Shown here piece by piece: positions 25,291 to 63,979 of a stretch of 64,000 nt of DNA. Made by a program: the position numbers and the translations under genes. The notes under the pieces were generated by a model that made no database searches, was not told the origin of the DNA, and saw nothing but the letters and a program-made list of their open reading frames with translations. Position 1 is the stretch's first letter. Each line of letters starts with the position of its first letter. This DNA is from a virus. The DNA is taken from positions 7,539 through 71,538 of IMG/VR virus record IMGVR_UViG_2974520824_000001, one strand, 5' to 3'.

Positions 25291-25830
25291 GTGACCGAAC
25301 CGGCTGAAATCGAAAGCGTCCCTTTGCAACCCGCAGCCATCGGGCTGAATATGGACCCTGAAACTGCCTCGTATGTCGGCATGTTGGAGGGAACCATTGC
25401 GGCACTTGTGATTTCGGACGTGAAGAACCGCACCCTGTTGGAGCTTCTGACCGGCGATGGCTGGGAGGCAGCGCGAGTCGATTTCAATGGGGATGCCCTT
25501 ATCGGGCTTGCTGTTTCGGCGCTCGTCAAACAAACCGGAATGTCGACGGCCAACGCGAAAATCCTCGTAATGAAGCGTTGGGCCGAAAGAAACCATCCTG
25601 CCGATTACATCATTCCGCAGGCGGTATCGATTGACCAAATGACCGGCAACGTGCCCACCAGTGGGCAAGATGTCCCGGCCATGTCCGAGCGCGTGAAGGC
25701 ATGGCGAGCTAAGCAGCAAGCCGAAATTGCCGAATTGTCAAGTGCCGCAACAGATTCCGCTAGCGAAACCCCAAGCGGCGCAAGCGATTTGGAGAAGCAA
25801 GCGGAAACTGGCACGAACGTACCAGAGTAG
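25291..25830 (+). CDS. hypothetical protein (last gene of late operon); contains palindrome copy 1
   Basis: GTG start after GCAGGAGAATCATC; 179 aa. Confidence 0.45.
   Translation: MTEPAEIESVPLQPAAIGLNMDPETASYVGMLEGTIAALVISDVKNRTLLELLTGDGWEAARVDFNGDALIGLAVSALVKQTGMSTANAKILVMKRWAERNHPADYIIPQAVSIDQMTGNVPTSGQDVPAMSERVKAWRAKQQAEIAELSSAATDSASETPSGASDLEKQAETGTNVPE
25652..25667. repeat. 16-bp palindrome copy 1 (TGCCCACCAGTGGGCA), inside CDS, encodes PTSG
   Basis: Exact palindrome seen in sequence. Confidence 0.8.
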
Positions 25831-25847
25831 TACAACTGAATCTGATT

Positions 25848-25899
25848 GCGCGGCAAGGGTTTTCGATCACTGAATTCCCTTGTCGCGCTTTCGTTTCCG
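25848..25899 (+). terminator. putative factor-independent terminator of late operon
   Basis: GCGCGGCAAGGG...CCCTTGTCGCGC 12-bp stem (one G-U) followed by TTTCGTTTCC. Confidence 0.45.
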
Positions 25900-27347
25900 T
25901 GAAAGCGGACTAGGGTCCGGTATTGTGTAGAACTTGACAGGTGTCAATTTTGAAACCCTAACTGTTGCAAAGGATTTCAAATCTGAAAAACGTTGCAGCA
26001 CAAGGCTTTTCGGCCAAAGTTAGTTAACGGCCATTCACTTTTCGGTTTGGGCACCGGACTGTAGTCCGCTTAGGCTGTAGCAAACAGATTATGTCAACCT
26101 AAACGGAACGTGCGTTCTGATCGCCTGTTTTCGCTGGTCAGCGACCTAATTTGGAGGGTGTGAGATAGGTCACACTTTCCAGCAAACTGATGTTTTCCCT
26201 GCATCTACCTGGGTTTTTGGTATAGTGGTGGTTGAAGTGTGTTTATTGAACACATGGTGATTGAAAACTACATAGCGGGTGACGAGCGAACTACTTGGAT
26301 AGTTCGATGCCACGCGAAACGCGCTCGGATTCGACAATGGAAATTTTCCTAGAATCGCAACAGTGAGCCACGCCGCCGGGTATCGATACAAAGTGTGTGT
26401 GAGTGAAAAGCCAACGATGTGGGCGGCCGGATCGAAACACGCGAACACGTATTCCAAGCAAGCGTTGCAAGTGAGCCGAGAACTCATTAGCTTACGAAGT
26501 ACCGATCAGGAGACGTGCGACAATGGCACTGATTGAATCGCGAACCGGATAGTCACCCGCTATGCAGTACAGGCCAGCACCACGGCCAGACAACTAGATA
26601 CGAGGAAACGCGAAAGTTGGCTAATACCAGCAACTTTCACGGAGTATCCGTATCGAATAGTGTACCGCTGCAAGGGTTTTCAAAGACCGGAGTTAGCGCG
26701 TAGTGTTCATCCGGCGATAACGGAGAGACAACCGGAGTCCGCATAGCGGCCCGCCGATCAGGGGACACCCTTTGACCTGAGACTACGTGTGAAATATGGC
26801 ACCCTGAGCAGCGCAATCGAATCGGTGAAAACGTTTGGTGCTGGCACGTTCTGACGATTCGATTGGTGTTCGGTAGGTTCCTACAATTGATAAGACCTGT
26901 TCAGTCAGGCCCAATCCCTAGTCCTACCAACACATTCCATCCATCCTCGGTACAGGGGTTTTCCTCTGTACCAACAGATTTCACGAACAGATAACCGCTG
27001 GTCGTGGCGTCCGTTGGTGCAGGTGGCAGGCTTAGAAATATGGCACGTCCGTATTGGTACCTGGCTGGAACGTAGAAAAGAGTGACCCCGTCTCCGCTAC
27101 TATAATAAGGCGATTTTTCAAAAGTGTCTCAGATTGGCTCTCAGGCCCGGGAATGGGCTTTTGACCAGGACTTTTGTAGGGCATCTCCCAGGACGTGACC
27201 AGGCCGGTACGCGCCAGTACCACACCAAATGGCTTCCCAGACATACGGTTTGGGATTTTGGATTGAAACCTGTTGTGCGGCAACGCATTTCGGGCAGGCA
27301 TCCAAACGAAAGACCTTGCGCTGCAAGGCAATCCGAGAGGATAGGGA

Positions 27348-27485
27348 ATGAAGTTTGCGGTCTGCACTGCTAGCGGCAACGTCCTGGCACGTTTCGGAAA
27401 CGTGACGTGGGCACGTCGTTTTGCGCGTGAGAACAAACCGTGTGTTTTGTGGAATACCAAGACAAACAAGCAACTTCGCTTCTGA
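27348..27485 (+). CDS. small hypothetical protein (45 aa), first gene carrying the conserved GAGAGGAT leader
   Basis: ATG preceded by CCGAGAGGATAGGGA; not in ORF track (<60 aa); ends 10 nt before first tRNA-like element. Confidence 0.35.
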   Translation: MKFAVCTASGNVLARFGNVTWARRFARENKPCVLWNTKTNKQLRF

Positions 27486-27495
27486 GAGCAGTAAG

Positions 27496-27539
27496 GCCCG
27501 CAACGGTTTTCAACGTAGGTTCGATTCCTACGGCGGGTA
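27496..27539 (+). ncRNA. tRNA-like top-half element U1 (acceptor stem + T-arm, no anticodon arm)
   Basis: GCCCGC-AACGGTTTTCAAC-GTAGGTTCGATTCCTAC-GCGGGT-ACG; perfect T-loop TTCGATT. Confidence 0.5.
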
Positions 27540-27568
27540 CGTTATAGCGAAACACGCTATATGAGAGG

Positions 27569-27763
27569 ATGATTCAAATGGCGTTGAATCGTGAGCAGAA
27601 GAAAATGCTCGGAGATGCGGCGTTCGGCAAGGCAATCCAATTGGTCGAATTCTTCGGTGAAGACGAGACCACGGAAGCTCTTGCCGCACAAGGCATTAAA
27701 CCCAGCGAGGCGCGAGAGCAAATCGAAATCTGGTTCTCCAAGATTCCATCGACGTACAAGTAA
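27569..27763 (+). CDS. hypothetical small protein (cassette gene 1)
   Basis: Leader TGAGAGGATGATTCAAATG; consensus alignment suggests true start at second ATG 27578. Confidence 0.45.
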   Translation: MIQMALNREQKKMLGDAAFGKAIQLVEFFGEDETTEALAAQGIKPSEAREQIEIWFSKIPSTYK

Positions 27764-27775
27764 TGAATCACGTTC

Positions 27776-27828
27776 GGGCACAACGGTTTCCGCGCTAGCG
27801 GGCGGGGGTTCGATTCCCCCGGTGCCTA
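27776..27828 (+). ncRNA. tRNA-like top-half element U2
   Basis: GGGCAC-AACGGTTTCC(GCGCTAGCGG)-GGGGGTTCGATTCCCCC-GTGCCT-ACA; extra mini-hairpin in linker. Confidence 0.5.
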
Positions 27829-27863
27829 CAATGCACCAAATCGGTTGCAGGAGAGGATGAATC

Positions 27864-28157
27864 ATGGCTGACATCAAAGCACGCAATCGAATCTGCACCA
27901 ATTGCCAGGTCGATGTGGACGTGCGCCAATGTGATTGCAACGCAAGGGTTACCACGCTGATTTCGTGGGACTGCACACGTTGCGGCACAGAGGTTGTCAC
28001 CAGCGGCGGTCACGACGTTGATTGCCGCAAATGTGGTGCTTGCTACAACGGTTCAGGCCAACGTCTCCGCGACGATTGGCGTTCCAATCCTTCGGTCTAC
28101 GATGACGAAATCGGAGATATGGAAGGGTACGAATTGCAGCACGCGAACGATTGGTGA
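27864..28157 (+). CDS. Cys-rich small protein (putative zinc-binding)
   Basis: Leader GCAGGAGAGGATGAATCATG; CTNC...CDC...CTRC...CRKCGAC motifs. Confidence 0.5.
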   Translation: MADIKARNRICTNCQVDVDVRQCDCNARVTTLISWDCTRCGTEVVTSGGHDVDCRKCGACYNGSGQRLRDDWRSNPSVYDDEIGDMEGYELQHANDW

Positions 28158-28170
28158 CGTAATCACCGGA

Positions 28171-28211
28171 GGGACAACGGTTTTCGGGTAGGTTCGATTC
28201 CTACCGTCCCA
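28171..28211 (+). ncRNA. tRNA-like top-half element U3
   Basis: GGGAC-AACGGTTTTCG-GGTAGGTTCGATTCCTACC-GTCCC-ACG; preceded by hairpin GGTGACGTAATCACC. Confidence 0.5.
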
Positions 28212-28250
28212 CGCTTCAACCAAATCGGTTGGCAGAGAGGGTGGTTCACG

Positions 28251-28490
28251 ATGTCTGATTATTCCTTTCACATCGAAGTCACTGACACGACAGTGGCTTA
28301 CGAGTGTGAGGCAGACCGGGCAGAACGTGAGGGATTCGACAACGTGGCGAAACGTCAACGTGCAATTGCTTTGCACTTGAAGAACGCATACGAACACATG
28401 CGCGACATTTGCCCCGAAGGTTACCGGGTCGAAACGAAAATCGTTGTCTCACATGTCCCTAACGTCAACCCTGTTCTGAATAGACGCTGA
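28251..28490 (+). CDS. hypothetical small protein
   Basis: Leader CAGAGAGGGTGGTTCACGATG after hairpin CCAAATCGGTTGG. Confidence 0.45.
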   Translation: MSDYSFHIEVTDTTVAYECEADRAEREGFDNVAKRQRAIALHLKNAYEHMRDICPEGYRVETKIVVSHVPNVNPVLNRR

Positions 28491-28499
28491 ATCATGGTG

Positions 28500-28541
28500 G
28501 GCCGGAACGGTATTAGGTGGGTTCAACTCCCACCCCGGCTA
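28500..28541 (+). ncRNA. tRNA-like top-half element U4
   Basis: GGCCGG-AACGGTATTAG-GTGGGTTCAACTCCCAC-CCGGCT-ACA; acceptor stem identical to U7. Confidence 0.45.
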
Positions 28542-28577
28542 CAATGCGACGAAATACGTTGCAGGAGAGGATGGTTC

Positions 28578-29357
28578 ATGATGAACGACGATCTGGCTTA
28601 CGTGGCTAAGTGCTGCTTTCATTCCTCTGACGATCACAACCCCATTGGTGGTTGGGACGCCGGTTACTGCTCTGGAAACAGTTGCGGTTGCGAGGAATTG
28701 AGCGATGAGCGCGCCACGGTGCTTGAGGTCTTGAATCATGAGTACGGAACCGCTTTGACTGCAAGCGATTTGGAATACAAAAACGACGTTCCTCGTGAAT
28801 GGTCACACATTCTCAAGCTTGGACCGTATGGTCGGAATCTCGTAATCGACTTGACCAGCGCACGCGATGTGCATGGTTACGATGACGCGCTGACGACCTC
28901 CAATTACGAAGTCCTGCAAGAGAATTGGAAAGGCTACGACGCACTATGCGACGGTGGCTACTCCAATTGCTATTCCATTGGCCTGCAATTCGATGAGGCA
29001 TCCCCCGCCGATCTGGTTTCCACGGTCAAGTCTCTGGAAGACTATCCCGCACTTGATGATTCGCGAATGAGCGAGCTTGAGTGGGAATGGATTACAGAGC
29101 AGTGGAGCGACCACGGCATTCAGGATGCTCGAATCAAGCTGTCGGAGTTGCTATCTCACGATGGCAAGACGCGGTTTGAAATCGAATTGCCTGACGGTGA
29201 TTGGTTCGATGAGATGATTCGGGCCGACATCTTCGGTGACGATTCAAACGTTCCGTACTACGAATCGGGCGGCGGCGCTGTGTATCCCATTGACGAAATC
29301 CTTTCGGACAGTGCGACACTCGCCAAGTACGGTTCAATACTGTTTGCCCTGGTCTAA
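28578..29357 (+). CDS. hypothetical acidic protein (259 aa)
   Basis: Leader GCAGGAGAGGATGGTTCATGATG; in-frame ATG 28578 chosen over upstream track start 28494, which would read through U4. Confidence 0.5.
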   Translation: MMNDDLAYVAKCCFHSSDDHNPIGGWDAGYCSGNSCGCEELSDERATVLEVLNHEYGTALTASDLEYKNDVPREWSHILKLGPYGRNLVIDLTSARDVHGYDDALTTSNYEVLQENWKGYDALCDGGYSNCYSIGLQFDEASPADLVSTVKSLEDYPALDDSRMSELEWEWITEQWSDHGIQDARIKLSELLSHDGKTRFEIELPDGDWFDEMIRADIFGDDSNVPYYESGGGAVYPIDEILSDSATLAKYGSILFALV

Positions 29358-29366
29358 AGGGCAGGA

Positions 29367-29407
29367 GCGCCAACGGTTTTCGGTGAGGTTCGATTCCTCA
29401 CGGCGCA
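29367..29407 (+). ncRNA. tRNA-like top-half element U5
   Basis: GCGCC-AACGGTTTTCG-GTGAGGTTCGATTCCTCAC-GGCGC-ACG. Confidence 0.5.
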
Positions 29408-29442
29408 CGTATCCCAAACGGGAAACAAGAGAGGATGGAACA

Positions 29443-29727
29443 GTGGCGAATACTACCTTCAAAGGTGTTGAGATTTACCGGGTTTCGCGCAACAAGGCCA
29501 GTGGTACCAACGGTAACCCACGGTTCACATTGCACACGGATCGCGGCGAAATGCACACCGGCGTAGACGCTTCCCTTGGTTACGGCATCGAAAACCTGAC
29601 CAATAAGCGGCTCCCTGAGACGTTCGTGATCGGAAACCCCGGTGTCACAGTCGATTTGGTCGGTTGTGGCAGCCGACCGGATTCCAACATCATTCACGTC
29701 ATTCGGGACGGTAAACAGCTGATGTAA
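29443..29727 (+). CDS. hypothetical small protein
   Basis: Leader CAAGAGAGGATGGAACAGTG; GTG start; track ORF 29236 would read through U5. Confidence 0.45.
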   Translation: MANTTFKGVEIYRVSRNKASGTNGNPRFTLHTDRGEMHTGVDASLGYGIENLTNKRLPETFVIGNPGVTVDLVGCGSRPDSNIIHVIRDGKQLM

Positions 29728-29735
29728 TCCAAAGA

Positions 29736-29779
29736 GGGCCAACGGTTTTCGTTGGGGTTCGATTCCCCAAGGCCCACCA
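29736..29779 (+). ncRNA. tRNA-like top-half element U6 (3' end ACCA encoded)
   Basis: GGGCC-AACGGTTTTCGT-TGGGGTTCGATTCCCCA-AGGCCC-ACCA. Confidence 0.5.
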
Positions 29780-29822
29780 TGCTCCAATTCGTTTGGTGCA
29801 GTAGTGAACAGAGGATGGAAAC

Positions 29823-30269
29823 ATGGTAAGCAAGATCATTCTGGTGAATGCGTCTACCCAACTCGATCCGATCCGCAAAGGCATTGCGCAGGCACGACAT
29901 TCGTTGCGTGTTTGCGTCGATGGTGATGCGGTCAAGTTCAAAATCGATGGCGGCACTTGGTCGCCCGGTTACGGTGGCATTGATCCAGGATCGGATTACG
30001 CCTACTACCAACGCAATTCGGAAGCTGAGAAGTGCATCGCCATTGTCTTGAATGATGATGGCACGATGGAAGATCAGTGCTACACCTGGGAAACCGCACA
30101 GACTTACGCCCAACAGGGCAAGGTGGTTCGTGCGGTCCAGGCCGATGGTCACATGAGTATTGAAGCGATTCAACGACTCTGCGACGCCGACCGCGAAAGG
30201 TATTGGGACTGTTTCGATCCCGGTGACCAGTACACCGGTCCTACTCCGAGAGAGTTTGACGACGTGTGA
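29823..30269 (+). CDS. hypothetical protein (148 aa)
   Basis: Leader ACAGAGGATGGAAACATG after hairpin CACCA...TGGTG. Confidence 0.5.
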   Translation: MVSKIILVNASTQLDPIRKGIAQARHSLRVCVDGDAVKFKIDGGTWSPGYGGIDPGSDYAYYQRNSEAEKCIAIVLNDDGTMEDQCYTWETAQTYAQQGKVVRAVQADGHMSIEAIQRLCDADRERYWDCFDPGDQYTGPTPREFDDV

Positions 30270-30475
30270 AAACCATTGATCCAAACATGAACGCGGACAA
30301 GCAATATCGCGAAGCGTTCATGTTACGCCATAGAGCAGTAGCCATCGGAGATATCGAAATGTCAAGGTACATAGACGATTTGATATGGATGATGGCCTGC
30401 TCAATCGCCGAAGGGTTGCCGCAACCCTGGTCCCAATTCTATCCAATGTTTCAAGAAGAATTTGGGATCGAATAG
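30266..30475 (+). CDS. hypothetical small protein
   Basis: 69-aa ORF overlapping upstream stop by 4 nt; no leader cassette. Confidence 0.4.
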   Translation: MKTIDPNMNADKQYREAFMLRHRAVAIGDIEMSRYIDDLIWMMACSIAEGLPQPWSQFYPMFQEEFGIE

Positions 30476-30480
30476 TGGTG

Positions 30481-30522
30481 GGCCGGAATGGTTTTCGGAG
30501 GGTTCGATTCCCTCCCCGGCTA
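30481..30522 (+). ncRNA. tRNA-like top-half element U7
   Basis: GGCCGG-AATGGTTTTCG-GAGGGTTCGATTCCCTC-CCGGCT-ACG. Confidence 0.5.
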
Positions 30523-30564
30523 CGTAATCGGTTGAACCACAACCGGATACAGAGAGGATGGAAC

Positions 30565-30966
30565 ATGACCACGACTACCCTTGAGGACCGTGCTGCCGAG
30601 CTTGGCAAGGACTACGGAAAGGCTGTTGGATCATGGGTCGTTGACGGTAACACGTCAAAAGAGCAGTGCGACAAGCTGATTGAGGGTATCGATACGTGCG
30701 ATCCCGAAGTCATGGACTTGATTCCATCGCCTCTGTCCGGCGAATTTGCCGACGGCCCAACGGTTTACAGCGTTCTAAAAGAACTTGGCCTTGATCCGGC
30801 AGTGTTCGATGAACAGTTCGATCACTTGATCGACGTTTACGAAGAAGCATTCAGCGAAAGCTGGTGTGACACAGTCTATCAGGCCGCTCATGCCAATCAT
30901 CCTGACTACGATCCGTGCTCGGTTTGTGGTCTGTATGGGCATAAGTGGAAAGAACACGTCGATTGA
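30565..30966 (+). CDS. hypothetical acidic protein
   Basis: Leader ACAGAGAGGATGGAACATG; ATG 30565 in frame with track ORF 30385. Confidence 0.5.
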   Translation: MTTTTLEDRAAELGKDYGKAVGSWVVDGNTSKEQCDKLIEGIDTCDPEVMDLIPSPLSGEFADGPTVYSVLKELGLDPAVFDEQFDHLIDVYEEAFSESWCDTVYQAAHANHPDYDPCSVCGLYGHKWKEHVD

Positions 30967-31101
30967 ATGTATCGCGAAAACCCGTACCTCCCAACGCCTT
31001 TGAGGTGGTACGAGTACGTGATACACAATGGACGAAAACACCGTGCGCTCAAGAACTTTCGCGGTTTGACCGTGATACTTGAGTGCGTGGAGTAGTGGTT
31101 A

Positions 31102-31143
31102 TCCCCGATGGTCGTAGCCGTGGTTCGACTCCACGGCGGGGAA
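31102..31143 (+). ncRNA. tRNA-like top-half element U8
   Basis: TCCCC-GATGGTCGTA-GCCGTGGTTCGACTCCACGGC-GGGGA-ACG; 7-bp T-stem. Confidence 0.45.
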
Positions 31144-31188
31144 CGAGCGCGCCAATTCCGGTGTGCCACAAAAAGAAAGAGGATGGTA

Positions 31189-31416
31189 ATGGGTATGGCT
31201 ACCGTACAGAACCGCCAATCGGCCTACGTTCGTAGGCTCCGAGTAGGCGACAAGTTCAACGAAGACGGTACTACCTGGATCGTGACCCGAGAGCCGGAAG
31301 TAATCGACGGCGCAGAGGTTGCGGTCTACCTGAAACCCCTTCCGTCACCGCCACGTTCGCGGTCGCGACGATTCTCCTACGCAATGGATGCGCGGGTTCA
31401 CATCGTCCGGTCCTAA
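31189..31416 (+). CDS. hypothetical small protein
   Basis: Leader AAAGAAAGAGGATGGTAATGGGTATG; start ambiguous between ATG 31183, 31189 and 31195. Confidence 0.4.
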   Translation: MGMATVQNRQSAYVRRLRVGDKFNEDGTTWIVTREPEVIDGAEVAVYLKPLPSPPRSRSRRFSYAMDARVHIVRS

Positions 31417-31434
31417 GTGAGTAGACGGGGGATA

Positions 31435-31498
31435 GCCCGGTTGGTACGAATTCGGTTGAAAGACACCGAATTTCGCAAGTTCAATCCTTGCGCGGGCA
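31435..31498 (+). ncRNA. tRNA-like element U9 (acceptor + long internal hairpin + T-arm; atypical)
   Basis: GCCCG...AATTCGGT-TGAAAGAC-ACCGAATT...GCAAGTTCAATCCTTGC-CGGGC-ACT; T-loop TTCAATC. Confidence 0.35.
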
Positions 31499-31565
31499 CT
31501 ATCTCAGATGCTATTCTGAGAACACCAACGAATCTCGTTGGGACACACAAAGAAAGAGGATGGAT

Positions 31566-32753
31566 ATGAGCCAGGAAACGATGGAATGGTTGAACAAGTA
31601 CATTCTGGTTGGGAACTGCAAGGCCCGACCGAATGCTTGGCACAACCGTCCTGAATTCCGCGAGGCAAATGGTTTGGAGGAAAACCACTTTCAAGACCCG
31701 ATTCCGTATCGGGTTGTGGTTGACCGGCTTTTCAACTGGAAAGCAATCAGCGCCCCGAAAGCGAATCTCATCCCGGTTCCGAAACGAGACGCCAATTGGT
31801 TTGACGCAGACGGCAATCCGTTCAAGATTGTCATGTCGTCCGAGTACGACTACAAAAAGCGTGAAATCATCGGTGGCGAACAGGGTATCGTCAAGTCAGA
31901 TACCTTGGAGCACATCGCAACTCACAGTGGCAAGTACAAAATCCACGATTACGAACAGTGGCTTTTGCAGTTGCAGTCCAACGTGATTGGCGATACGCTC
32001 TCGATTCTCGGTGCCGGTCTACTTCGCAACGGTGCGCAAGCCTACGTTCAGGTGGCACTGCCAGAAACCGTGCAGGACAACAACTCTGGTATGGAATTCG
32101 TTCCGTACATCATGGGGTCAACGTCGCTGGACGGTTCGATTCCGAGCACTTACAGCGCGGGATCGCTTCTGGTGGTTTGCGATAACACCAGAGACGGAGC
32201 GATTGCACAGGCGAACCAGTCGGGTCGCATCTACAAGGCCAAGCACACGTCGAAATCCCTTGATACGGATAGCATTAAAGACGTGCAGCAGGCGTTGGGA
32301 ATCGTCCACCAGACCGCCGAGTCCATGAAGCATGAATTTGCTGAACTGGCCGCTATCGACATGAACCGTCGGCAGACGCTGAAAGTGCTTGATATCATTC
32401 AGCCTATCCCGAAGGAAAAAGACGGTGCGACCAAGCGACAGGTTGTAATCGCGGAAAACAAGCGAGAGGGGTTGCTGCACGCAATCTTTCGCGATCCCAC
32501 AGGCGGCGCGGAATGGAAGAACACCGCGCTTGGCCTGAGCAATGGCGTCTCCACGTACTTCACTTGGAACACCAGCGTTAAGGGAAATCGCTTGGAGCGC
32601 AACGCCGAAAAGGCCATCAAGGCTGGCGTTGAGCGTCGGAAAGCGTTGGAGTTGGGCGCGATTGAATCGGGCGCAACATTCAGAGACGTTGACCGGCAAA
32701 CCATGATGGCGATTGCTCACGTCATGAATCGACCGGAGTTGGTCGGCAAGTAG
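31566..32753 (+). CDS. hypothetical protein (395 aa), largest cassette gene; possibly a DUF932-like phage/plasmid protein (unverified)
   Basis: Leader AAAGAAAGAGGATGGATATG after two hairpins; the family resemblance is a recollection only. Confidence 0.5.
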   Translation: MSQETMEWLNKYILVGNCKARPNAWHNRPEFREANGLEENHFQDPIPYRVVVDRLFNWKAISAPKANLIPVPKRDANWFDADGNPFKIVMSSEYDYKKREIIGGEQGIVKSDTLEHIATHSGKYKIHDYEQWLLQLQSNVIGDTLSILGAGLLRNGAQAYVQVALPETVQDNNSGMEFVPYIMGSTSLDGSIPSTYSAGSLLVVCDNTRDGAIAQANQSGRIYKAKHTSKSLDTDSIKDVQQALGIVHQTAESMKHEFAELAAIDMNRRQTLKVLDIIQPIPKEKDGATKRQVVIAENKREGLLHAIFRDPTGGAEWKNTALGLSNGVSTYFTWNTSVKGNRLERNAEKAIKAGVERRKALELGAIESGATFRDVDRQTMMAIAHVMNRPELVGK

Positions 32754-32759
32754 TAAGGA

Positions 32760-32805
32760 GGGTAGCTCTGGTGAGCTTAGTTCAGGTTCGATTCCTGACT
32801 ACCCA
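32760..32805 (+). ncRNA. tRNA-like element U10 (acceptor + small D-like hairpin + T-arm)
   Basis: GGGTAG-CTCTGGTGAGCTTAG-TCAGGTTCGATTCCTGA-CTACCC-ACG. Confidence 0.5.
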
Positions 32806-32847
32806 CGTAAGCCGTTGACAGTCAACGGAATACAGAGAGGATGGAAC

Positions 32848-33168
32848 GTGCGAATCCCCATGAGGACGAAGTATGTCCGCGAGGATCACGCCTTGCTGAA
32901 AAGCAATGTGTACGTTGATGGTTCAAAGATGATCCAAGTCTTTTCGGCCATCGGCGAACCGCTTCTGACGGCAACCGTGTGTCTTGAGGCATACGGTGAA
33001 AAGCCCGATGAGGGAAACGTTTTCATCAAGACGTGGTCCGAAAACGAAGGTGTCTTTGAGGCACTGCACAAGGCGGGGGTGATTGGCAACGCGGTGCGAA
33101 TGATTCCGGTCGGTGGTCATGATGCTCAAGTTGCCGAATGCCCTCTGCTCGCGAAAGGTCGTTTCTAA
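32848..33168 (+). CDS. hypothetical protein
   Basis: Leader ACAGAGAGGATGGAACGTG after perfect hairpin CCGTTGACAGTCAACGG; GTG start (alternative ATG 32860). Confidence 0.45.
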   Translation: MRIPMRTKYVREDHALLKSNVYVDGSKMIQVFSAIGEPLLTATVCLEAYGEKPDEGNVFIKTWSENEGVFEALHKAGVIGNAVRMIPVGGHDAQVAECPLLAKGRF

Positions 33169-33169
33169 C

Positions 33170-33415
33170 ATGGCATTTGAGACACGGATCAGAAATCGGA
33201 ACACGATTGAAAAGGTCAATCCTTCAACCGGTCACGTCATCGCCAAAGCTGTCAGAGCACAGCCGGGAGCGAATTGGCATGTCGGAGCAGAGATTCAGAC
33301 CGATATGGGAAAGAAGATGACCAACGTCGGAGAGATCGCGGCCCATCTTCCCGAAGTGATGCAACGAAAGCTCGCTTTGAGCTGGGTTGATTCACTGCCT
33401 TTCAATCTGTACTGA
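33170..33415 (+). CDS. hypothetical small protein
   Basis: ATG 33170 two nt after upstream TAA, in frame with track ORF 33113. Confidence 0.4.
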   Translation: MAFETRIRNRNTIEKVNPSTGHVIAKAVRAQPGANWHVGAEIQTDMGKKMTNVGEIAAHLPEVMQRKLALSWVDSLPFNLY

Positions 33416-33424
33416 ATCACGGTA

Positions 33425-33466
33425 TGCCGGAACGGTTTTCAGTGGGGTTCGATTCCCCGCCCGGCA
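33425..33466 (+). ncRNA. tRNA-like top-half element U11
   Basis: TGCCGG-AACGGTTTTCAG-TGGGGTTCGATTCCCCG-C-CCGGCA-GCA. Confidence 0.5.
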
Positions 33467-33504
33467 GCAATGCGGCGAATGACCGCAGGAAAGAGGATGG
33501 AAAC

Positions 33505-34044
33505 ATGAAATTCGTTGACCTGAGCCAGAATCCGCCCGCCGAGGTTACGGTTCTGACCTTGCGAGACATCGCGTTCAAAATCAACGGGAACGACGCATCG
33601 ACCTACTCTGGATACGCTCGTGTTTCAGTCCTCCAAAACTGGCACGACGATCCCGAAATCGAAACTCCCGCACCGGATTACACGATCAGTGAAGTTGACT
33701 ACTGGCTTCCCGAGCGTGTCTCCGAGTGGGATATGTTGTATTCCAATGAGATTCAGCGCGAAGAAGACCGAAAGGCCGAACGTCTCAAAAAGGAAAAGAT
33801 CAGCAAGTCCGATCTGATCGAAACCCTGTTGGATCAAGCCAAAGATGTGGAGCGCCGAAACTCTCGGTGCTACAACCACAATCGCGGCAACTCCATGCAG
33901 GACGGTCGGAAACGGGTTCTGGCTCTTGAAGGTGCCAAAGATTTCGTCGAGTCCATGCTTGGCGAATCATCCATGACGAAGGAGCAGCGTACCAAGTGGA
34001 ACGAATTGCTGAGCCAGGCCAAAGCTCACGTGAAAATGCAGTAA
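33505..34044 (+). CDS. hypothetical protein with charged coiled-coil-like C-terminal half
   Basis: Leader GGAAAGAGGATGGAAACATG after hairpin TGCGG..CCGCA. Confidence 0.5.
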   Translation: MKFVDLSQNPPAEVTVLTLRDIAFKINGNDASTYSGYARVSVLQNWHDDPEIETPAPDYTISEVDYWLPERVSEWDMLYSNEIQREEDRKAERLKKEKISKSDLIETLLDQAKDVERRNSRCYNHNRGNSMQDGRKRVLALEGAKDFVESMLGESSMTKEQRTKWNELLSQAKAHVKMQ

Positions 34045-34199
34045 AGGTCAAGCGTGCCAGAGCATTTGGCGTGAACCTGTTTTTCGCAACGTGTGACGAG
34101 TGCCGATGCTGGATCAAATCTGGTGTCGGCCAACACGTTTGGGAACAGAGAACACAGGCGCGTGCAGCGGCACTAGCACATCGGCACTGAATTAAGGTG

Positions 34200-34241
34200 G
34201 CCCACAGTGGTTTTCGCCAGGGTTCGATTCCCTGGGTGGGC
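34200..34241 (+). ncRNA. tRNA-like top-half element U12
   Basis: GCCCAC-AGTGGTTTTCG-CCAGGGTTCGATTCCCTGG-GTGGGC-GCG. Confidence 0.5.
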
Positions 34242-34270
34242 GCGCTGACCAAAGCGGTCACAAAGAGAGG

Positions 34271-34675
34271 ATGGAAATGAAATCGGTACGAGATTGTGCG
34301 ATCACGTTCGTCGTCGTATCCGCAATCATCGCAAGCTTTTTCGCGGTCTATATGCTGTTCGCTCCAAAGGCGAAGGCAGACGGCTACGACTTCGGTTGCG
34401 AGACAATTCATTGGGGGTTCCTCGGATCGCAACGTCGCATCATCTGTGACGGGCCGAAACGTCCCGATGGATCGTGGGAGCGCGGTCGCGTCATTCTGAC
34501 ACCTGCCCACTACGTTCCCAGAAGTTGTTATTTCGGAACGTATTCCAGCAGTTGCAGCGGCGGTTACCAAGTTGATACCACCGTGCAGGCCAGAGAGTCT
34601 TACATCGTTTTTGATTCAAACGTTCTGCCGGATGAGCCGGGATGGCTGCCGCCAGGAACGGACACTCTGCGATGA
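34271..34675 (+). CDS. secreted/membrane protein (N-terminal signal-anchor)
   Basis: Leader CAAAGAGAGGATGGAAATG; hydrophobic N-terminus ITFVVVSAIIASFFAVYMLFAPKA. Confidence 0.5.
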   Translation: MEMKSVRDCAITFVVVSAIIASFFAVYMLFAPKAKADGYDFGCETIHWGFLGSQRRIICDGPKRPDGSWERGRVILTPAHYVPRSCYFGTYSSSCSGGYQVDTTVQARESYIVFDSNVLPDEPGWLPPGTDTLR

Positions 34676-34782
34676 AAGCTCTTGCGGCCCTGTTGATTTC
34701 GACAATCGTTTTGACCGGCTGTGAAGCGCCGCGAGGAACGACCGACGAACACCCGGTTTACGCAACCTGCGTGAATCGCTGA
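34672..34782 (+). CDS. 36-aa lipoprotein precursor (micro-ORF)
   Basis: ATGA overlap with upstream stop; MKALAALLISTIVLTGC has a lipobox-like LTGC; not in ORF track. Confidence 0.4.
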   Translation: MKALAALLISTIVLTGCEAPRGTTDEHPVYATCVNR

Positions 34783-34791
34783 ATCAAGGTG

Positions 34792-34835
34792 TCCCCCAAT
34801 GGTTTTGAAAGGCAGGTTCGATTCCTGCCGGGGGA
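34792..34835 (+). ncRNA. tRNA-like top-half element U13
   Basis: TCCCCC-AATGGTTTTGAAA-GGCAGGTTCGATTCCTGCC-GGGGGA-GCG. Confidence 0.5.
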
Positions 34836-34875
34836 GCGTTACCGGCCATAGCGGTCGGAACAGAGAGAGGATGGA

Positions 34876-35082
34876 ATGTATTCTGTCACAGTTCAATTGA
34901 ACCATGTGAAGGATTCTGACGACCTGTTGCTCCAACTTGTCAGACTACAAATGGCATTCAATCAGGACGTGGACTGGCTCGCGAAGCTCGCTCAACGAAC
35001 GAATCGTGGGTGCGGTCCATTTCCGTTAGCCTACAAGGGCATTCAGCGGATCGGCACGATTGAGGTCATGCGCAATGGCTAG
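34876..35082 (+). CDS. hypothetical small protein
   Basis: Leader ACAGAGAGAGGATGGAATG. Confidence 0.4.
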   Translation: MYSVTVQLNHVKDSDDLLLQLVRLQMAFNQDVDWLAKLAQRTNRGCGPFPLAYKGIQRIGTIEVMRNG

Positions 35083-35362
35083 GCAGCAGGCGGGGAAAGC
35101 GAAATCCATTCAGGCAGAACCGAAACGAGGTCACAAGTCGAGTACCGCAGACTTGCAGGCCAAAACTCTCAGAAAGGCCCATCGTCAGGGTATGGCGTGG
35201 GATGATTACGAGGTAACGGCTCTAGTGAAAGGAATCGAAAGGGACGCAACAACTTTCGATATCGCCATGTCGATTGGTCGTAGCTACTACGCGGTCATGA
35301 CGACTCGCCGCGCTGTCGGTTTCGCCATGCGACACGCCAACGCGATTTGGGGTGACAAGTGA
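35075..35362 (+). CDS. putative small DNA-binding protein (helix-turn-helix-like)
   Basis: ATG 35075 overlapping upstream stop by 8 nt; TFDIAMSIGRSYYAVMTTRR segment looks HTH-like. Confidence 0.4.
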   Translation: MARQQAGKAKSIQAEPKRGHKSSTADLQAKTLRKAHRQGMAWDDYEVTALVKGIERDATTFDIAMSIGRSYYAVMTTRRAVGFAMRHANAIWGDK

Positions 35363-35508
35363 GAAACAAGGTCCGAAAGAAGGTTCGCGCCAAGAACGTT
35401 GAAAAGCACCGCAGGCGTTTGGAAGATCAGAGATTGATTGACTTCCACAAGACGTTGGCCGATGAGATTCGCGCCGAACGTCAACGCCAAACAGAATCCA
35501 ACAGGTAA
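35359..35508 (+). CDS. 49-aa basic Lys/Arg-rich micro-protein
   Basis: GTG in GTGA overlap with upstream stop; not in ORF track; followed by strong terminator. Confidence 0.3.
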   Translation: MRNKVRKKVRAKNVEKHRRRLEDQRLIDFHKTLADEIRAERQRQTESNR

Positions 35509-35520
35509 CCATTTCAAATG

Positions 35521-35583
35521 AAAACCCCGGTGAGGCAATCGATTTCGCGTAGAAGTCGTGCGTCTCTCCGGGGTTTTCGTCGT
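35521..35583 (+). terminator. rho-independent terminator (bidirectional-looking)
   Basis: AAAACCCCGG(TGAG)...(CTCT)CCGGGGTTTTCGTCGTT: GC stem flanked by A-tract and T-tract. Confidence 0.55.
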
Positions 35584-35681
35584 TGGGGGTGGCTGAGGTA
35601 CCGGCCATGCTATGCTCGTCAGCGAGCGTGGCGTACAGCCGGTCGCACGGCCATCTCCGCAGGTCAACGAGAGGGTCGAAA

Positions 35682-35900
35682 GTGCTTGACAGAGTACGGA
35701 TTTGGGACGGCGAGAACGGAAACGTTCATATTGAACTAAAGGATGAAGACGACGTGCCGTTTTCTCACACCGTGATTCCTCCGCATGAGTGGAAAGAGTT
35801 GCGAGACAATATGATTAAAACGTTCCCCGCCAACGTGTCGGTTTCACTGCTCACGGACTACTTAGTTGCGCTAGGTATCCATGCACTTGAAATGCGGTAA
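35682..35900 (+). CDS. hypothetical small protein
   Basis: GTG 35682 after GAGGGTCGAAA; in frame with track ORF 35583. Confidence 0.35.
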   Translation: MLDRVRIWDGENGNVHIELKDEDDVPFSHTVIPPHEWKELRDNMIKTFPANVSVSLLTDYLVALGIHALEMR

Positions 35901-35957
35901 GAGTCAATGCATTTCATTTGGGATAGAAGAAAGGAGACGACACGCCGGTACAGCTAC

Positions 35958-35986
35958 TTGAATATGTAGGCACTGTGACATACTCT
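35958..35986 (+). promoter_or_regulatory. sigma70-like promoter candidate (TTGAAT-17-TACTCT)
   Basis: -35 TTGAAT 35958-35963, 17-nt spacer, -10 TACTCT 35981-35986, upstream of gene 36042. Confidence 0.3.
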
Positions 35987-36041
35987 TAGGTGGTCTGTCG
36001 ATTCCGGCAGGCAACCTCACTGCACCAAGAGAGAGGTAGCT

Positions 36042-36794
36042 ATGGCTGCACGGCCACGGAGAAGTTCTGTCAAGGAACCATCCCAAATCGAAAAGGACGC
36101 AAGCGAATTCGGCGTCGGAGTGCGTTGTGGCGGTTGGCGGCTCGGTTTGCTTGTCGCCCGAAACGTCATGAAGGTTGGTCAAGGTACTCGCTCGGACTTG
36201 CCCACTAGTGGGCAGGTCGATGGGCAAGTAACGAAGGTGTCAGCGAACCAATTTGCCAAGCTAGCAGGGGTCAGCTCATCCACGGTTGATTACTACTACA
36301 ACGCTTGGCAATTCGCTGCGAAGGCCAGCCTCGTTCCAGACGCCGAAAAGGTGAAGCCAGGAGACGAAGACATCTGCGTTGACGCCGATGCCATCGAAGA
36401 CGAGGACAACCCTCGCACTCACTGGTCACACTTTTACGGCCTTGCGAAGAATCCTCCGAAGGAATCCAAAAAGGCTGAGAAGAAACAAGATTCAAAGCCT
36501 GAACCGGAATCTGACGAGGATGAATCAGACGCCATCGATGAAGACTTCGGCATCAGTGAGGCCGATGCGATGACGGAAGATGAACGGGCAGAAGCGGATT
36601 CGTCAATCAATCGAAACGAACTGCTCGAAATCCTAGAGAGCGCACAGGGTTTGAAGTCGCGTCTTTCTCGGATCGATTCAATCACCGGTCACGAATCTCT
36701 TGCAGCGCAGATCGCAACGGCTGCAAGCGAATTGGCCGATTTGGCTAGCGGAATGGCAGCAACGGACGAAAAGCCGCAACTCCGCGCCGTCTAG
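36042..36794 (+). CDS. putative HTH DNA-binding protein with acidic C-terminal half; contains palindrome copy 2
   Basis: GAGAGAGGTAGCTATG RBS; VSANQFAKLAGVSSSTVDYYYNAWQ looks HTH-like; Asp/Glu-rich region 36360-36600. Confidence 0.5.
   Translation: MAARPRRSSVKEPSQIEKDASEFGVGVRCGGWRLGLLVARNVMKVGQGTRSDLPTSGQVDGQVTKVSANQFAKLAGVSSSTVDYYYNAWQFAAKASLVPDAEKVKPGDEDICVDADAIEDEDNPRTHWSHFYGLAKNPPKESKKAEKKQDSKPEPESDEDESDAIDEDFGISEADAMTEDERAEADSSINRNELLEILESAQGLKSRLSRIDSITGHESLAAQIATAASELADLASGMAATDEKPQLRAV
36199..36214. repeat. 16-bp palindrome copy 2 (TGCCCACTAGTGGGCA), in CDS, encodes PTSG
   Basis: Exact palindrome. Confidence 0.8.
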
Positions 36795-36802
36795 GGGGAA
36801 TA

Positions 36803-36834
36803 GGCCAGTCTCGGGGGTCTGGCCGAAACCTTTT
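36803..36834 (+). terminator. possible terminator hairpin directly upstream of tRNA-Gln
   Basis: GGCCAGTC-TCGGGG-GTCTGGCC then GAAACCTTTT. Confidence 0.35.
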
Positions 36835-40809: not shown

Positions 40810-40825
40810 TGCCCACCAGTGGGTA
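40810..40825. repeat. 16-bp palindrome copy 3 (TGCCCACCAGTGGGTA), intergenic, 3 nt after stop
   Basis: 15/16 match to palindrome; followed by GTGCGA as in copy 5. Confidence 0.75.
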
Positions 40826-48563: not shown

Positions 48564-49037
48564 ATGGGAAAGAAGAAGCGGAAACCTCAAGGGCAGCAAG
48601 GCAATCCGAAGCCGGGTCCATTTGAGAGCATGAAACAGCAAGAGGCCGTTGAGCGTTTGAGCCGACTGCTGCGATTCGCCAGCGCGCCACCTGAGCCGAT
48701 CTTGGCTATGCTCACACGTCTCGGAATCCCTTATCACACAGGAGAATTGAATCAGGAACTCGACGGCGACCCGATTGGTCAGAAGTATCTCGTCATCAAG
48801 GCCGAAGACCTGGAGGCGGGGGAAAAGAAGAACCAGGCCCAAGGTTCAGTTCTCGCAAGGCTTTACGGGCCGCAGACTCAGAATCCGCAGCAAGTGGTGA
48901 TCGGTCGCGATACGAGCCACATGCCCACCAGTGGGCGGGTTGGAGAGCCAACCGAGCACGTCGTCATGGACGAGGCGAAAAGGATTGCGCCAGAAGACAA
49001 TCCAGAAGATGAATACCTGAGAGGAATTCAAGGCTAA
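48564..49037 (+). CDS. hypothetical protein; contains palindrome copy 4
   Basis: ATG 1 nt after dnaE stop. Confidence 0.45.
   Translation: MGKKKRKPQGQQGNPKPGPFESMKQQEAVERLSRLLRFASAPPEPILAMLTRLGIPYHTGELNQELDGDPIGQKYLVIKAEDLEAGEKKNQAQGSVLARLYGPQTQNPQQVVIGRDTSHMPTSGRVGEPTEHVVMDEAKRIAPEDNPEDEYLRGIQG
48922..48937. repeat. 16-bp palindrome copy 4 (TGCCCACCAGTGGGCG), in CDS, encodes PTSG
   Basis: 15/16 match. Confidence 0.75.
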
Positions 49038-61932: not shown

Positions 61933-62136
61933 ATGATTGCCGAAGACCCCGAGGGCGGTCTATCATGGGATAAGGCCGAAAAGTCTGCGCTTGATTGGGC
62001 AATCGAAACCCTTGAGAGCAACGGACTTTCGGACGATGACCGAATCGTTTGCCACTATTGCGGAAAGAAGTATCCACCAGACAAGTTGGATCGACACCGC
62101 GAGAGATGCGAGATGGAATATGAGCGCGCCGGTTAA
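61933..62136 (+). CDS. small Cys-containing protein (CHYCG...C)
   Basis: ATG 61933 in frame with track ORF 61858. Confidence 0.35.
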   Translation: MIAEDPEGGLSWDKAEKSALDWAIETLESNGLSDDDRIVCHYCGKKYPPDKLDRHRERCEMEYERAG

Positions 62137-63364
62137 ATTCGTCGGAAACCCTACTGGCCCAATGAAATTCATCAAAGAACTGGGCCGTGAGGTTCCGACC
62201 TTTGTTGAAAAGCCAGGTGGGAAGACGAAAGCCCTTCGGCACCATGTACCTTTGGAGTGCCGAGGGGATTACCGGCCATCCGATTTGGCAAACTTTGATC
62301 CCGAATTCAATTACAGGACAGACCCTTTCGGAAGGGTTCTCTGCTATGCGTACACAAAAGCCGGTGAACGGTGCTCAAAGCGTGCGGTCAATCGTTACCC
62401 GCGCTGCGATATCCACGGTGGTCGAATTCACCCGCTGGACAAGATTGCTCCGAAATCCGGTGCAGATCAAGCGGTTTCACGGTATCAGCTCTTTAAGGCT
62501 GGGCAGATCGGTGTTGACGATCTGGACGACGAAGAACTCGCTACGTGTGGATTTCGCGCTTCGGATGGTCGAATCTATAAGCCTCGCAACGTTCCTCGTG
62601 AAATGGCCCAAGCATTCACGAAGGCCATCTATGAGCGTGCGCAAGAGCAATTACGTGCTCTAACAGTCGATGCCGTACAGACTTTGGGCGACATCATGAA
62701 GAATAAGTCGGTCGAACCCGATGTGCGCCTAAAGTCTGCCCTTTCAATTATCGAACGCAACCTTGGGAAAACGCCTCAGGCCGTTGTGCTTTCGACAGAG
62801 AAGCCATTTGAGGAAATTTTTGATGACATCGAACACGGAAGCCGTGAAGACTACCGACGATCCAAAGCCATTGAGTCAGAACGAATTATCGAAGCAGAAA
62901 TCGTTCCCGACCCAGGACGAAATCGACCGGATTTTGCTGATGCAGATGAAAGCCGATCTGGAAGTGATGGAACAGATCGTGGAAGCGTTGGGGGAGAACA
63001 GGATTCGGTACAAGGTTCCGATGCGGGCCAATCTGACGCGGATGAATCAGCTGGTGGATTCGTTAACCCGCGTATGTACGAGCGAAACGAAGCCGTCCTA
63101 GCACAAGTGGTGGAGCGCAAGCCATTTGAATATGACTTGAGCGATCATTCCGAAGATGTCAAAAAGGCAACCCAAAAGCGGTATGTCGCAAGGGCATTGG
63201 GCGAAGACATCATCGAAGGAACCGGGCCATACGAAACAGAGGAAATCCCTCTGCCTGACGGTGGCCGCATAATTAAGAACGTCGATCCAGAACGCCCAAA
63301 ACCCAAGAGCGACAAAGATTCTCGGGCAAAGAGTCGAAAGCGGTTCACGCTAGACGACTTCTGA
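62120..63364 (+). CDS. hypothetical protein with Cys/His cluster and acidic low-complexity region
   Basis: ATG 62120 in frame with track ORF 61937; CYAYTKAGERCSKRAVNRYPRCDIHGG. Confidence 0.45.
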   Translation: MSAPVKFVGNPTGPMKFIKELGREVPTFVEKPGGKTKALRHHVPLECRGDYRPSDLANFDPEFNYRTDPFGRVLCYAYTKAGERCSKRAVNRYPRCDIHGGRIHPLDKIAPKSGADQAVSRYQLFKAGQIGVDDLDDEELATCGFRASDGRIYKPRNVPREMAQAFTKAIYERAQEQLRALTVDAVQTLGDIMKNKSVEPDVRLKSALSIIERNLGKTPQAVVLSTEKPFEEIFDDIEHGSREDYRRSKAIESERIIEAEIVPDPGRNRPDFADADESRSGSDGTDRGSVGGEQDSVQGSDAGQSDADESAGGFVNPRMYERNEAVLAQVVERKPFEYDLSDHSEDVKKATQKRYVARALGEDIIEGTGPYETEEIPLPDGGRIIKNVDPERPKPKSDKDSRAKSRKRFTLDDF

Positions 63365-63500
63365 TAGCGAATTCGCGTGTGTCCCTTGGCAATCCAGCCT
63401 GGGCGGGGTACCCTAATGTCGAAGGGTGGTCGCCGCTGGCTGCATAGCCCTACCCCGCAGAAAGCCGAAAAGGCTTGTAAGAGAAAGGTTTACGAGCCAA

Positions 63501-63746
63501 ATGGCTAAGAAGCGTTTCACTCCGGTCAAGCAAGTTGGTCCGAACACGTCCGATCCGATCAATGCTATTCCGCGTGATCGGGACAATACCGACGATTTGC
63601 TCGCCGCCGAACAAGCTGTGCACACACGTTATTCACACATTCGTGCGCCGCAGGGAACCAAGTCCAAGTCTGCTACCAAGGGTGCATTCGATCCGGCAGA
63701 TAACACCGCATTCAATGGGAACAAGGTCGTCACGCGAAAGACGTAG
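63501..63746 (+). CDS. hypothetical small basic protein
   Basis: ATG after GAGAAAGG; follows structured intergenic region. Confidence 0.4.
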   Translation: MAKKRFTPVKQVGPNTSDPINAIPRDRDNTDDLLAAEQAVHTRYSHIRAPQGTKSKSATKGAFDPADNTAFNGNKVVTRKT

Positions 63747-63772
63747 ACGAATATCGAAGGGAGGCAACCCAA

Positions 63773-63961
63773 TTGAGCGCCAATCGTAGCGAGGCCGTTG
63801 CCATCGCTCGGGCAGCCGTTGGGATTGAAGGGAACCGGTCAGTCCTCGACCCGCTGGCCGGTATCCCGAATCATCCCTTCTTTGATCGGAAGCTCCGATT
63901 TTTCAGTGGCTGTGACAGCAAGGGACGAATTCGCCTGTACGCCATGACAATTCAGGATTAA
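63773..63961 (+). CDS. hypothetical small protein
   Basis: ORF, 62 aa. Confidence 0.3.
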   Translation: MSANRSEAVAIARAAVGIEGNRSVLDPLAGIPNHPFFDRKLRFFSGCDSKGRIRLYAMTIQD

Positions 63962-63963
63962 CT

Positions 63964-63979
63964 TGCCCACCGGTGGGCA
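63964..63979. repeat. 16-bp palindrome copy 5 (TGCCCACCGGTGGGCA), intergenic, 2 nt after stop
   Basis: Exact palindrome; followed by GTGCGA as in copy 3. Confidence 0.8.

Follow-up and report, generated by a model that had tools for sequence, protein, structure and literature searches.

Mycobacterium phage Indlulamithi carries five dispersed copies of a short inverted repeat. Comparison with related phages makes it very likely that these are protein sites on duplex DNA rather than RNA elements. The best candidate for the protein, with a probability of roughly 0.55, is the phage's own gp61, a predicted helix-turn-helix (HTH) protein whose gene contains one of the copies. The window analyzed, a 64,000-nucleotide stretch of an IMG/VR virus record, corresponds to bases 7539-71538 of the Indlulamithi genome (NC_048824.1; 71,538 bp), with 100% identity over the 6 kb compared by megablast. 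Indlulamithi belongs to cluster AC, is listed as non-temperate, and was among the phages screened in a tuberculosis phage-cocktail study (PMC8263002). Neither an integrase nor a repressor is annotated. All annotated genes lie on the plus strand, and because gene 1 (terminase) begins at base 1, the record is read as a circular permutation of the genome, with the terminase gene as its opening point. A search of the literature on Indlulamithi and its relatives Fowlmouth and MrMiyagi found no account of the motif.

The motif, TGCCCACCAGTGGGCA, occurs exactly at window position 25652 and with one mismatch each at 36199 (CTAG at the center), 40810 (ending ..GGGTA), 48922 (ending ..GGGCG), and 63964 (CCGG at the center), confirming the five locations listed in a preliminary description of this DNA. 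Allowing up to two mismatches, there are 8 strand-matches compared with 0.04 expected from dinucleotide shuffles, and none of 100 shuffles reaches the observed count, as that description had anticipated. The remaining 7.5 kb outside the window contains no copy, so the genome total is exactly five. The element had been described as a strict 16-bp palindrome, which needs amending: it consists of 7-bp inverted arms, TGCCCAC and GTGGGCA, around a free 2-bp center (CA three times, TA once, CG once), and the dyad continues outward as AAC-N...N-GT(T) to a total of about 22 bp. The core CACNNGTG is present 17 times, as against five full sites. All copies lie on the transcribed strand of a genome that is transcribed from one strand only.

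Three copies are intragenic and two are intergenic. Copy 1 (25652..25667; TGCCCAC-ca-GTGGGCA) falls within gp39 (25291-25830), the gene that closes the lysis cassette; it is 164 nt ahead of the stop codon and has a 1.5-kb gene-free region downstream. Copy 2 (36199..36214; TGCCCAC-ta-GTGGGCA) lies inside the gp61 gene (36042..36794, plus strand), where it codes for residues 53-58, part of a disordered loop that immediately precedes the HTH. Copy 3 (40810..40825; TGCCCAC-ca-GTGGGTA) begins 3 nt after the TAA of the small methyltransferase gene gp67 and is followed by a terminator-like hairpin, a conserved structured spacer, and the exonuclease gene. Copy 4 (48922..48937; TGCCCAC-ca-GTGGGCG) is inside gp77 (48564-49037), the gene after DnaE. 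Copy 5 (63964..63979; TGCCCAC-cg-GTGGGCA) begins 2 nt after the TAA of gp112; circular permutation of the genome places it 21 nt ahead of the large-terminase ATG, which is at record base 1. The flanks of copies 3 and 5 resemble each other, and N-GTGCGA follows both, so that the earlier account of the intergenic copies, 2-3 nt past a stop codon and then GTGCGA, holds. That both lie so near a stop codon reflects the overlap of TAA with the A-rich outer flank of the motif.

Evidence that the motif is a recognition site includes the mirror-image changes seen in syntenic relatives. Searches by tblastn with gp61 and gp77 retrieve just three other GenBank phages, Fowlmouth, MrMiyagi, and Cuke, which are fully syntenic with Indlulamithi at 36-44% protein identity. 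Each has five or six copies of aAAC-CGTCCAC-NN-GTGGACA-GTTt, in which both arms are altered symmetrically: GCCCAC-NN-GTGGGC in Indlulamithi corresponds to GTCCAC-NN-GTGGAC in the three relatives. Four positions match: within the gp61 homolog, directly behind the small methyltransferase, in the gene that follows DnaE, and in the final lysis-cassette gene. Fowlmouth gp36 and MrMiyagi gp36 have equivalents of copy 1 in a different reading frame, and Cuke gp33 retains one intact half-site where the other phages hold a full site. Equivalents of copy 4 lie in Fowlmouth gp87, MrMiyagi gp85, and Cuke gp108, and all three relatives have the site in the methyltransferase-exonuclease spacer. The recurrence in relatives about which the preliminary description had asked takes the form of a covarying version at syntenic positions. 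Copy 5 is specific to Indlulamithi, with no site at the corresponding junction in the relatives, and the relatives have additional lineage-specific sites in the tape-measure gene and the gp113 family (all three) and in MazG (Cuke). Each of the four complete genomes contains one recurrent 6+2+6 palindrome family with three to five perfect copies; 200 Markov simulations per genome never produced more than two. A scan of IMG/VR for the Indlulamithi motif found 90 contigs. Almost all of them have the motif once, and two have it as a close pair; this is the level expected by chance, and no closer relative turned up.

The distribution of changes between Fowlmouth and MrMiyagi separates the arms from the center. 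The two phages differ at 1 of 84 arm positions, 4 of 12 central positions, and 20 of 720 flanking positions, indicating that the arms are constrained and the center is not. The changes at the center all fall on its first base, at 4 of 6 sites (L003/L004 compared with L007/L008; flanks differ by 2.8%), and every one is a transition (TG/CG at two sites, CA/TA, and GT/AT). Two of them alter an amino acid (RPLVD/RPPVD). This turnover could reflect a mutational hotspot at the dyad center or simply relaxed constraint.

The sites also display several of the features expected of an operator for a dimeric protein. A symmetry table of 31 sites, with departures counted within the 7-nt arms, shows dyad symmetry, a fixed half-site spacing, a free center, and symmetric AAC/GTT flanks. 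At the center, most sites have a pyrimidine-purine step, which is more deformable than any other and is common at the dyad of protein-bent operators. Half-sites vary independently, as in the mixed GTCCAC/GGCCAC sites and the half-decayed site in Cuke gp33. Among 23 arm asymmetries, 13 are A.C or C.A, 7 are transversion mismatches, and 3 are G.T, so that 20 of 23 would be unpairable in plus-strand RNA. The transversion mismatches occur mostly at position 5, where one half reads GTCCAC and the other GGCCAC. These unpairable mixed half-sites favor a dimer that reads each half independently over an RNA or cruciform hairpin. The suggestion of a dimeric DNA-binding-protein site in the preliminary description is therefore supported by the symmetric arm change at syntenic positions, the concerted lineage-specific change, the free center, and the independence of the half-sites.

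The constraint acts at the nucleotide level. All three intragenic Indlulamithi copies do read Pro-Thr-Ser-Gly, as first described (xTG CCC ACN AGT GGG), and this shared frame had been taken as a signature of the element. However, the site is in phase 1 (PTSG) in Indlulamithi gp39 and gp61 but in phase 0 (RPLVD or RPPVD) at the matching place in the homologs from Fowlmouth, MrMiyagi, and Cuke, and the PTSG reading common to the Indlulamithi copies is therefore incidental. The phase-1 reading (PTSG/STGG; P/S-T-S/G-G) gives small flexible residues that are suited to loops. A peptide-level repeat and a mobile in-frame insertion were both rejected, since the frame differs in homologs and the flanks share nothing.

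The arrangement of copy 2 recurs across a large protein family. A word-indexed search detects 65 gp61 homologs, and an exhaustive search detects 754 clusters at 50% identity. DNA around gp61 homologs was taken from metagenomes and IMG/VR (20 kb per locus), and 17 family genes were read. Each lineage has an arm-NN-arm palindrome with a sequence of its own at the same spot, just before the HTH-coding DNA. Twelve further family genes have such an own-gene palindrome, making copy 2 the most widely conserved of the five, with an in-gene site in 13 of the 17 genes and in 12 of 12 that are full-length and phage-borne. Counting Indlulamithi, there are nine site types, and the linker palindromes elsewhere in the family are of the TCGCCAC, C(A/G)TTCTC, AAGTTCAC, AAGTGCAC, TCGTCCAC, CTGCGAAC, or CCGTAACG types. 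Loci L011, L017, and L018 carry TCGCCAC-NN-GTGGCGA; L009, L010, and L025 carry AATC(A/G)TTCTC-NN-GAGAACGATT. Single representatives are TTCAAGTTCAC-at-GTGAACTTGAA in L012, AAGTGCAC-aa-GTGCACTT in L016, CTGCGAAC-ca-GTTCGCAG in L013, and GCCACCGTAACG-at-CGTTACGGTGGC in L023. The perfect palindrome TCGTCCAC-cc-GTGGACGA is found in L015, a non-phage integrated element. Second copies lie 8-10 kb upstream, where the lysis cassette ends or within a long gene-free gap, in L010, L011, L018, and L025; those in L011 and L018 are at a place analogous to that of copy 1. Matching second copies are also found in the methyltransferase-exonuclease spacer of L009 (degenerate) and L012. A test that back-translated the linker peptides of the 65 homologs for compatibility with a palindrome was not used as evidence, because its background was too high (about 2.8% of windows).

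One sequence is thus shared by the sites of each genome and is replaced wholesale between lineages. Such a lineage-specific change of all copies is as expected from a trans-acting, sequence-specific factor encoded by the phage. The sole constant association of the sites is with the gp61 gene itself. In the preliminary description, the products of 36042-36794 (gp61) and 35075-35362 (gp58) were proposed as candidate binders; gp61 emerges as the likeliest, and gp58, which was not detected near gp61 in L011-L013, is kept as an alternative.

The gp61 protein is annotated as 'MerR-like HTH' and has no match among Pfam, NCBIfam, PHROG, or PDB sequences. Its AlphaFold model, built from a 47-sequence alignment, has a mean predicted local distance difference test score (pLDDT) of 83. 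The model shows a four-helix HTH domain (residues 14-95) broken by a disordered loop (residues 43-64), then an acidic disordered stretch, and then a C-terminal helical hairpin. The loop encoded by the site has pLDDT below 50 for residues 54-60. As modeled, the HTH domain looks like sigma region 4, LuxR, the ParB DNA-binding domain, and DnaA domain IV, and the C-terminal hairpin looks suited to dimerization. The acidic tail carries a conserved DFG motif. The gp61 gene heads the replication module, lying directly upstream of the SNF2 helicase gene in L016 and two to three genes upstream of it elsewhere. Two contexts outside phages were observed. The L014 gene (10001-10978), which neighbors BREX/PglZ and SIR2 genes, joins a gp61-type domain to a Dam-like N6-adenine methyltransferase. 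In L015 (10001-10735), the gp61-type gene adjoins an integrase and is upstream of a DUF3854/AAA_25 gene.

The proposed explanation is that the five motifs are cognate 22-24 bp two-fold-symmetric duplex sites of a phage-encoded dimeric HTH protein, most likely gp61. Each gp61 monomer would read one half-site, AAC-N-TGCCCAC, leaving the 2-bp center uncontacted. The in-gene copy, within the DNA for the loop beside the recognition helix, would keep specificity and site linked in mosaic genomes and would permit autoregulation of gp61. The remaining four to five sites lie on or close to the boundaries between modules: where the lysis cassette ends, downstream of the helicase/methyltransferase block, downstream of DnaE, and ahead of the terminase. 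Bound gp61 may modulate read-through transcription at these boundaries as a repressor, roadblock, or insulator in the lytic program. A transcriptional role of this kind is put forward tentatively from the placement of the sites. A broader idea, also offered as a conjecture, is that gp61-type proteins may be 'self-addressed' binders that carry their own recognition palindrome inside disordered-loop DNA, so that specificity and site travel together while a few extra copies wire a lineage-specific, genome-wide network that insulates transcription or organizes the genome. The idea is meant to cover at least 754 clusters in actinobacteriophages and integrated elements, for phages with genes on one strand.

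Several observations weigh against these proposals. The link between gp61 and the sites is a correlation, and phylogeny confounds it. Family members L014, L022, L024, and L026 lack a perfect palindrome, and gp58 is a second HTH protein that is conserved in the closer relatives. CCAC-type sites accompany the recognition-helix residues SxSTV (Indlulamithi, Fowlmouth, and L011), and TTCTC-type sites accompany SxS(H/Q)V; L015 (SKQHV) and Fowlmouth (SKSTV) share GTCCAC, so there is no simple mapping of residue to base. Further weak points are the high turnover of the first central base, in two phages that are 97% identical nearby, and the preference of most Fowlmouth-type sites for C at -7 and A at +7 in any reading frame. 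The reverse (T...G) arrangement was seen once among 18 Fowlmouth-type sites (L003-L008), at Cuke 65149. With its C(-7)/A(+7) asymmetry, the near-palindrome has a fixed orientation with respect to transcription. A role as a classical operator is not apparent, because most sites are intragenic and no sigma-70-like promoter is predicted alongside. In a consensus scan, no such promoter was found beside any site and promoter-like matches were fewer than in shuffles, with the caveat that mycobacterial and phage promoters are poorly captured by a consensus. The terminator scan, too, gave nothing informative beside the sites except the terminator-like hairpin after copy 3.

One alternative gives gp61 a different function. 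The sites could be replication origins, with gp61 as an initiator that loads the SNF2 helicase and primase in the manner of lambda O or SPP1 G38P. The presence of a site within the gene of its putative binder in most family genes fits this arrangement, as do the position of gp61 close upstream of the helicase at the head of the replication module, the lack of any other annotated initiator, and the acidic tail, whose conserved DFG motif could recruit partners. However, the sites are single dyads rather than an iteron array. No AT-rich unwinding element lies within 150 bp of 23 sites, where the maximum AT content in 30-nt windows is at or below random, and cumulative GC skew climbs monotonically without a switch. 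Five to six widely spaced single sites, one of them in a tape-measure gene, would also be atypical of origins, and this explanation is considered unlikely.

Alternatively, the binder might be another protein (gp58, the small terminase, or a host protein), in which case the copy in gp61 would be a regulatory target and not a self-site. The gp58 gene (35075..35362, plus strand) encodes a small HTH protein (phrog_2511) with homologs detected in Fowlmouth, MrMiyagi, Cuke, L009, and L010, and the tie between gp61 and the site is one of association. Nevertheless, no gp58 homolog was detected within 10 kb in L011, L012, or L013, yet these loci have palindromes, and L009 and L010 share a site type with different gp58 helices. 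A host factor fits poorly because phages isolated on the same host strain carry different motifs. Since only the association with the gp61 gene is universal, another binder has low odds. The Fowlmouth half-site TGTCCAC resembles the mycobacterial DnaA box. A host DnaA site was set aside in view of the head-to-head 2-bp spacing, the symmetric flanks, and the differing motifs on one host.

Relative to the gp61 proposal, a third possibility changes the molecule that is recognized. The motif could form an RNA hairpin with a 6-bp stem and a 4-nt loop that acts in processing, stability, or translational control or as the target of an RNA-binding protein. All copies are on the transcribed strand, two directly follow stop codons, and two imperfect Indlulamithi copies would retain G-U pairs; moreover, structured RNA-like elements are heavily used between the early genes of this phage. 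The unpairable asymmetries argue otherwise, as they include mid-stem T.C and G.A at position 5. Compensatory or wobble pairing, as would be expected of a structured RNA, is largely missing, with G.U at 3 of 23 asymmetries and identical arms within a genome. Structure alone does not demand one sequence per genome, and the loop bases are free, although RNA-binding proteins usually read the loop. The predicted hairpins are modestly more stable than shuffles (z -1.0 to -3.5), and no U-tract follows them. Rfam gave no match at two copies inside the 25-42 kb stretch scanned, a scan that left out the other three copies. Taken together, an RNA hairpin seems improbable.

The remaining suggestion in the preliminary description, a footprint or target of a restriction-modification system, methyltransferase, homing nuclease, or small mobile element, is hardly credible: two methyltransferase genes are present, one with a site abutting its end, and L014 has a fusion of a gp61-like domain with a Dam-type methyltransferase, but positions are syntenic across genera while the sequence covaries (restriction-modification targets have random placement and a fixed sequence), the core far outnumbers the full sites, there are no terminal repeats, target duplications, other flanking repeats, or cargo, and the IMG/VR scan gives isolated chance copies elsewhere. 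Mobile palindromes like repetitive extragenic palindromes or miniature inverted-repeat transposable elements were also ruled out, given that 3 of 5 copies are inside open reading frames (ORFs) with no flanking repeat structure.

The closest precedent is the repeat 5'-TGTTCGGNNNCCGAACA of Corndog and other cluster O phages, which its authors read as sites for a dimeric protein whose role was unknown (PMC4351075). Like the Indlulamithi motif, it has 7-bp invariant inverted arms around a short unconserved spacer and is dispersed through the genome, with many copies intragenic, shared positions, and occasional loss by a single base (PMC4351075). It differs in sequence, in spacer length (3 bp rather than 2 bp), and in number (34 copies rather than 5-6), and no covarying series of site variants across lineages is described for it (PMC4351075). 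One cluster O copy, TGTTCGGAAACCGAACA (L027 7617-7633; record position 47616), is inside the Corndog gp76 gene for a predicted DNA-binding protein, after an N-terminal HTH. This in-gene copy parallels the gp61 arrangement in an unrelated protein; neither Corndog gp76 nor gp90 shows homology to gp61.

The stoperators of cluster A are comparable in being identical dispersed sites away from promoters that are read by one phage protein with co-evolving specificity, and they are proposed to act on transcription elongation (PMC9283540, PMC6550527). Stoperators are asymmetric 13-14 bp sites for a monomeric immunity repressor, oriented with transcription and present in tens of copies in temperate phages (PMC9283540, PMC6550527). 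The Indlulamithi sites, in contrast, are dyad-symmetric, number five to six with most of them intragenic, and belong to a non-temperate phage. Of the site classes raised in the preliminary description, stoperator membership is thus contradicted by the symmetry, the five copies, and the lack of an annotated repressor or integrase, and parS-like membership by the absence of a ParB N-terminal (CTP-binding) domain and of a ParA partner.

A recognition site inside the coding sequence of its binder is known from lambda O and ori, SPP1 G38P and oriL, and Bacillus subtilis Spo0J and parS. The lambda ori lies within the linker-coding stretch of the O gene. SPP1 oriL is inside gene 38, with a second origin far off, and both SPP1 and ParB systems have more copies elsewhere on the replicon. 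As proposed for gp61, a site in the binder's own gene links site and specificity in these systems; unlike them, the gp61 sites have no iterons, AT-rich region, ParB N-terminal domain, or ParA. The KorB operators (OB) of IncP plasmids offer another parallel, with about a dozen identical short palindromes, some of them promoter-distant, that are bound by one dimeric HTH global regulator. KorB is a ParB-family plasmid protein, whereas gp61 has no detectable relationship to KorB, and most of its putative sites fall inside ORFs. Phage DNA-binding proteins with dispersed cognate sites are a known kind of system; the twist here is a site inside the putative binder's gene across an unannotated family.

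Other structured elements are found near the motif copies. Each gap of about 90 nt between the small early genes (window 27518-37120, plus strand) contains a tRNA-like unit, in which an exact T-arm core, GGTTCGATTCC, is flanked by a T-stem plus an acceptor-like stem; AGAGAGGATGGAA and then a start codon come about 20 nt later. The core has 13 exact plus-strand copies and 16 with at most one mismatch, compared with 2.1 expected. The one-mismatch matches include the T-arm of tRNA-Gln (36834-36906), the sole true tRNA. On these units, Rfam gives sub-threshold hits to the tmRNA tRNA-like domain and mascRNA. The units may punctuate the mRNA as RNase P/Z processing signals. Between the lysis cassette and the early genes, the 1.5 kb without an annotated gene (window 25831-27348) contains partial early-region repeat units at 25835 and 26652. 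Equivalent long gaps occur in L010 (1114-2502), where the gap holds the palindrome of that lineage, and L011 (1030-2915).

The spacer between the methyltransferase and exonuclease genes (window 40826-41030; Fowlmouth L004 17510-17770) is conserved in all relatives. It contains the motif ACAAYTRAATARRR and a GC-rich hairpin enclosing CCATCCTCYCC, which complements the ribosome-binding motif GGAGAGGATGG of the early genes. A long-range stem comes next and covaries, with GGTTGCAGGGCAA...TGTCCTGCAATC in Indlulamithi and GGTTGTGGGGCAA...TTGTCCCACAACC in Fowlmouth, around an interior that varies and that includes, in MrMiyagi, a T-arm-like GAGTTCGACTCTC. The gene preceding gp77 also varies in organization. 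The DnaE-like polymerase is a single 1059-amino acid ORF in Indlulamithi (window 45383-48562); the annotation splits it into two neighboring ORFs in Fowlmouth, MrMiyagi, and Cuke, and into PHP and polymerase parts in L011 and L013.

If gp61 binds the sites, a sizeable unannotated protein family from actinobacteriophages and integrated elements would gain a function, with a specificity that can be read from its own linker. The family would then provide a natural series of protein/site pairs (GCCCAC, GTCCAC, CGCCAC, TTCTC, GTTCAC, GTGCAC, and others) for studying how recognition specificity evolves, and gp61-type pairs would be usable as orthogonal regulators in mycobacterial genetics. The dispersed palindromes of cluster O would likewise receive an explanation open to testing. 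Understanding gene control in Indlulamithi itself has some practical value, given that the phage has been screened for a tuberculosis cocktail (PMC8263002).

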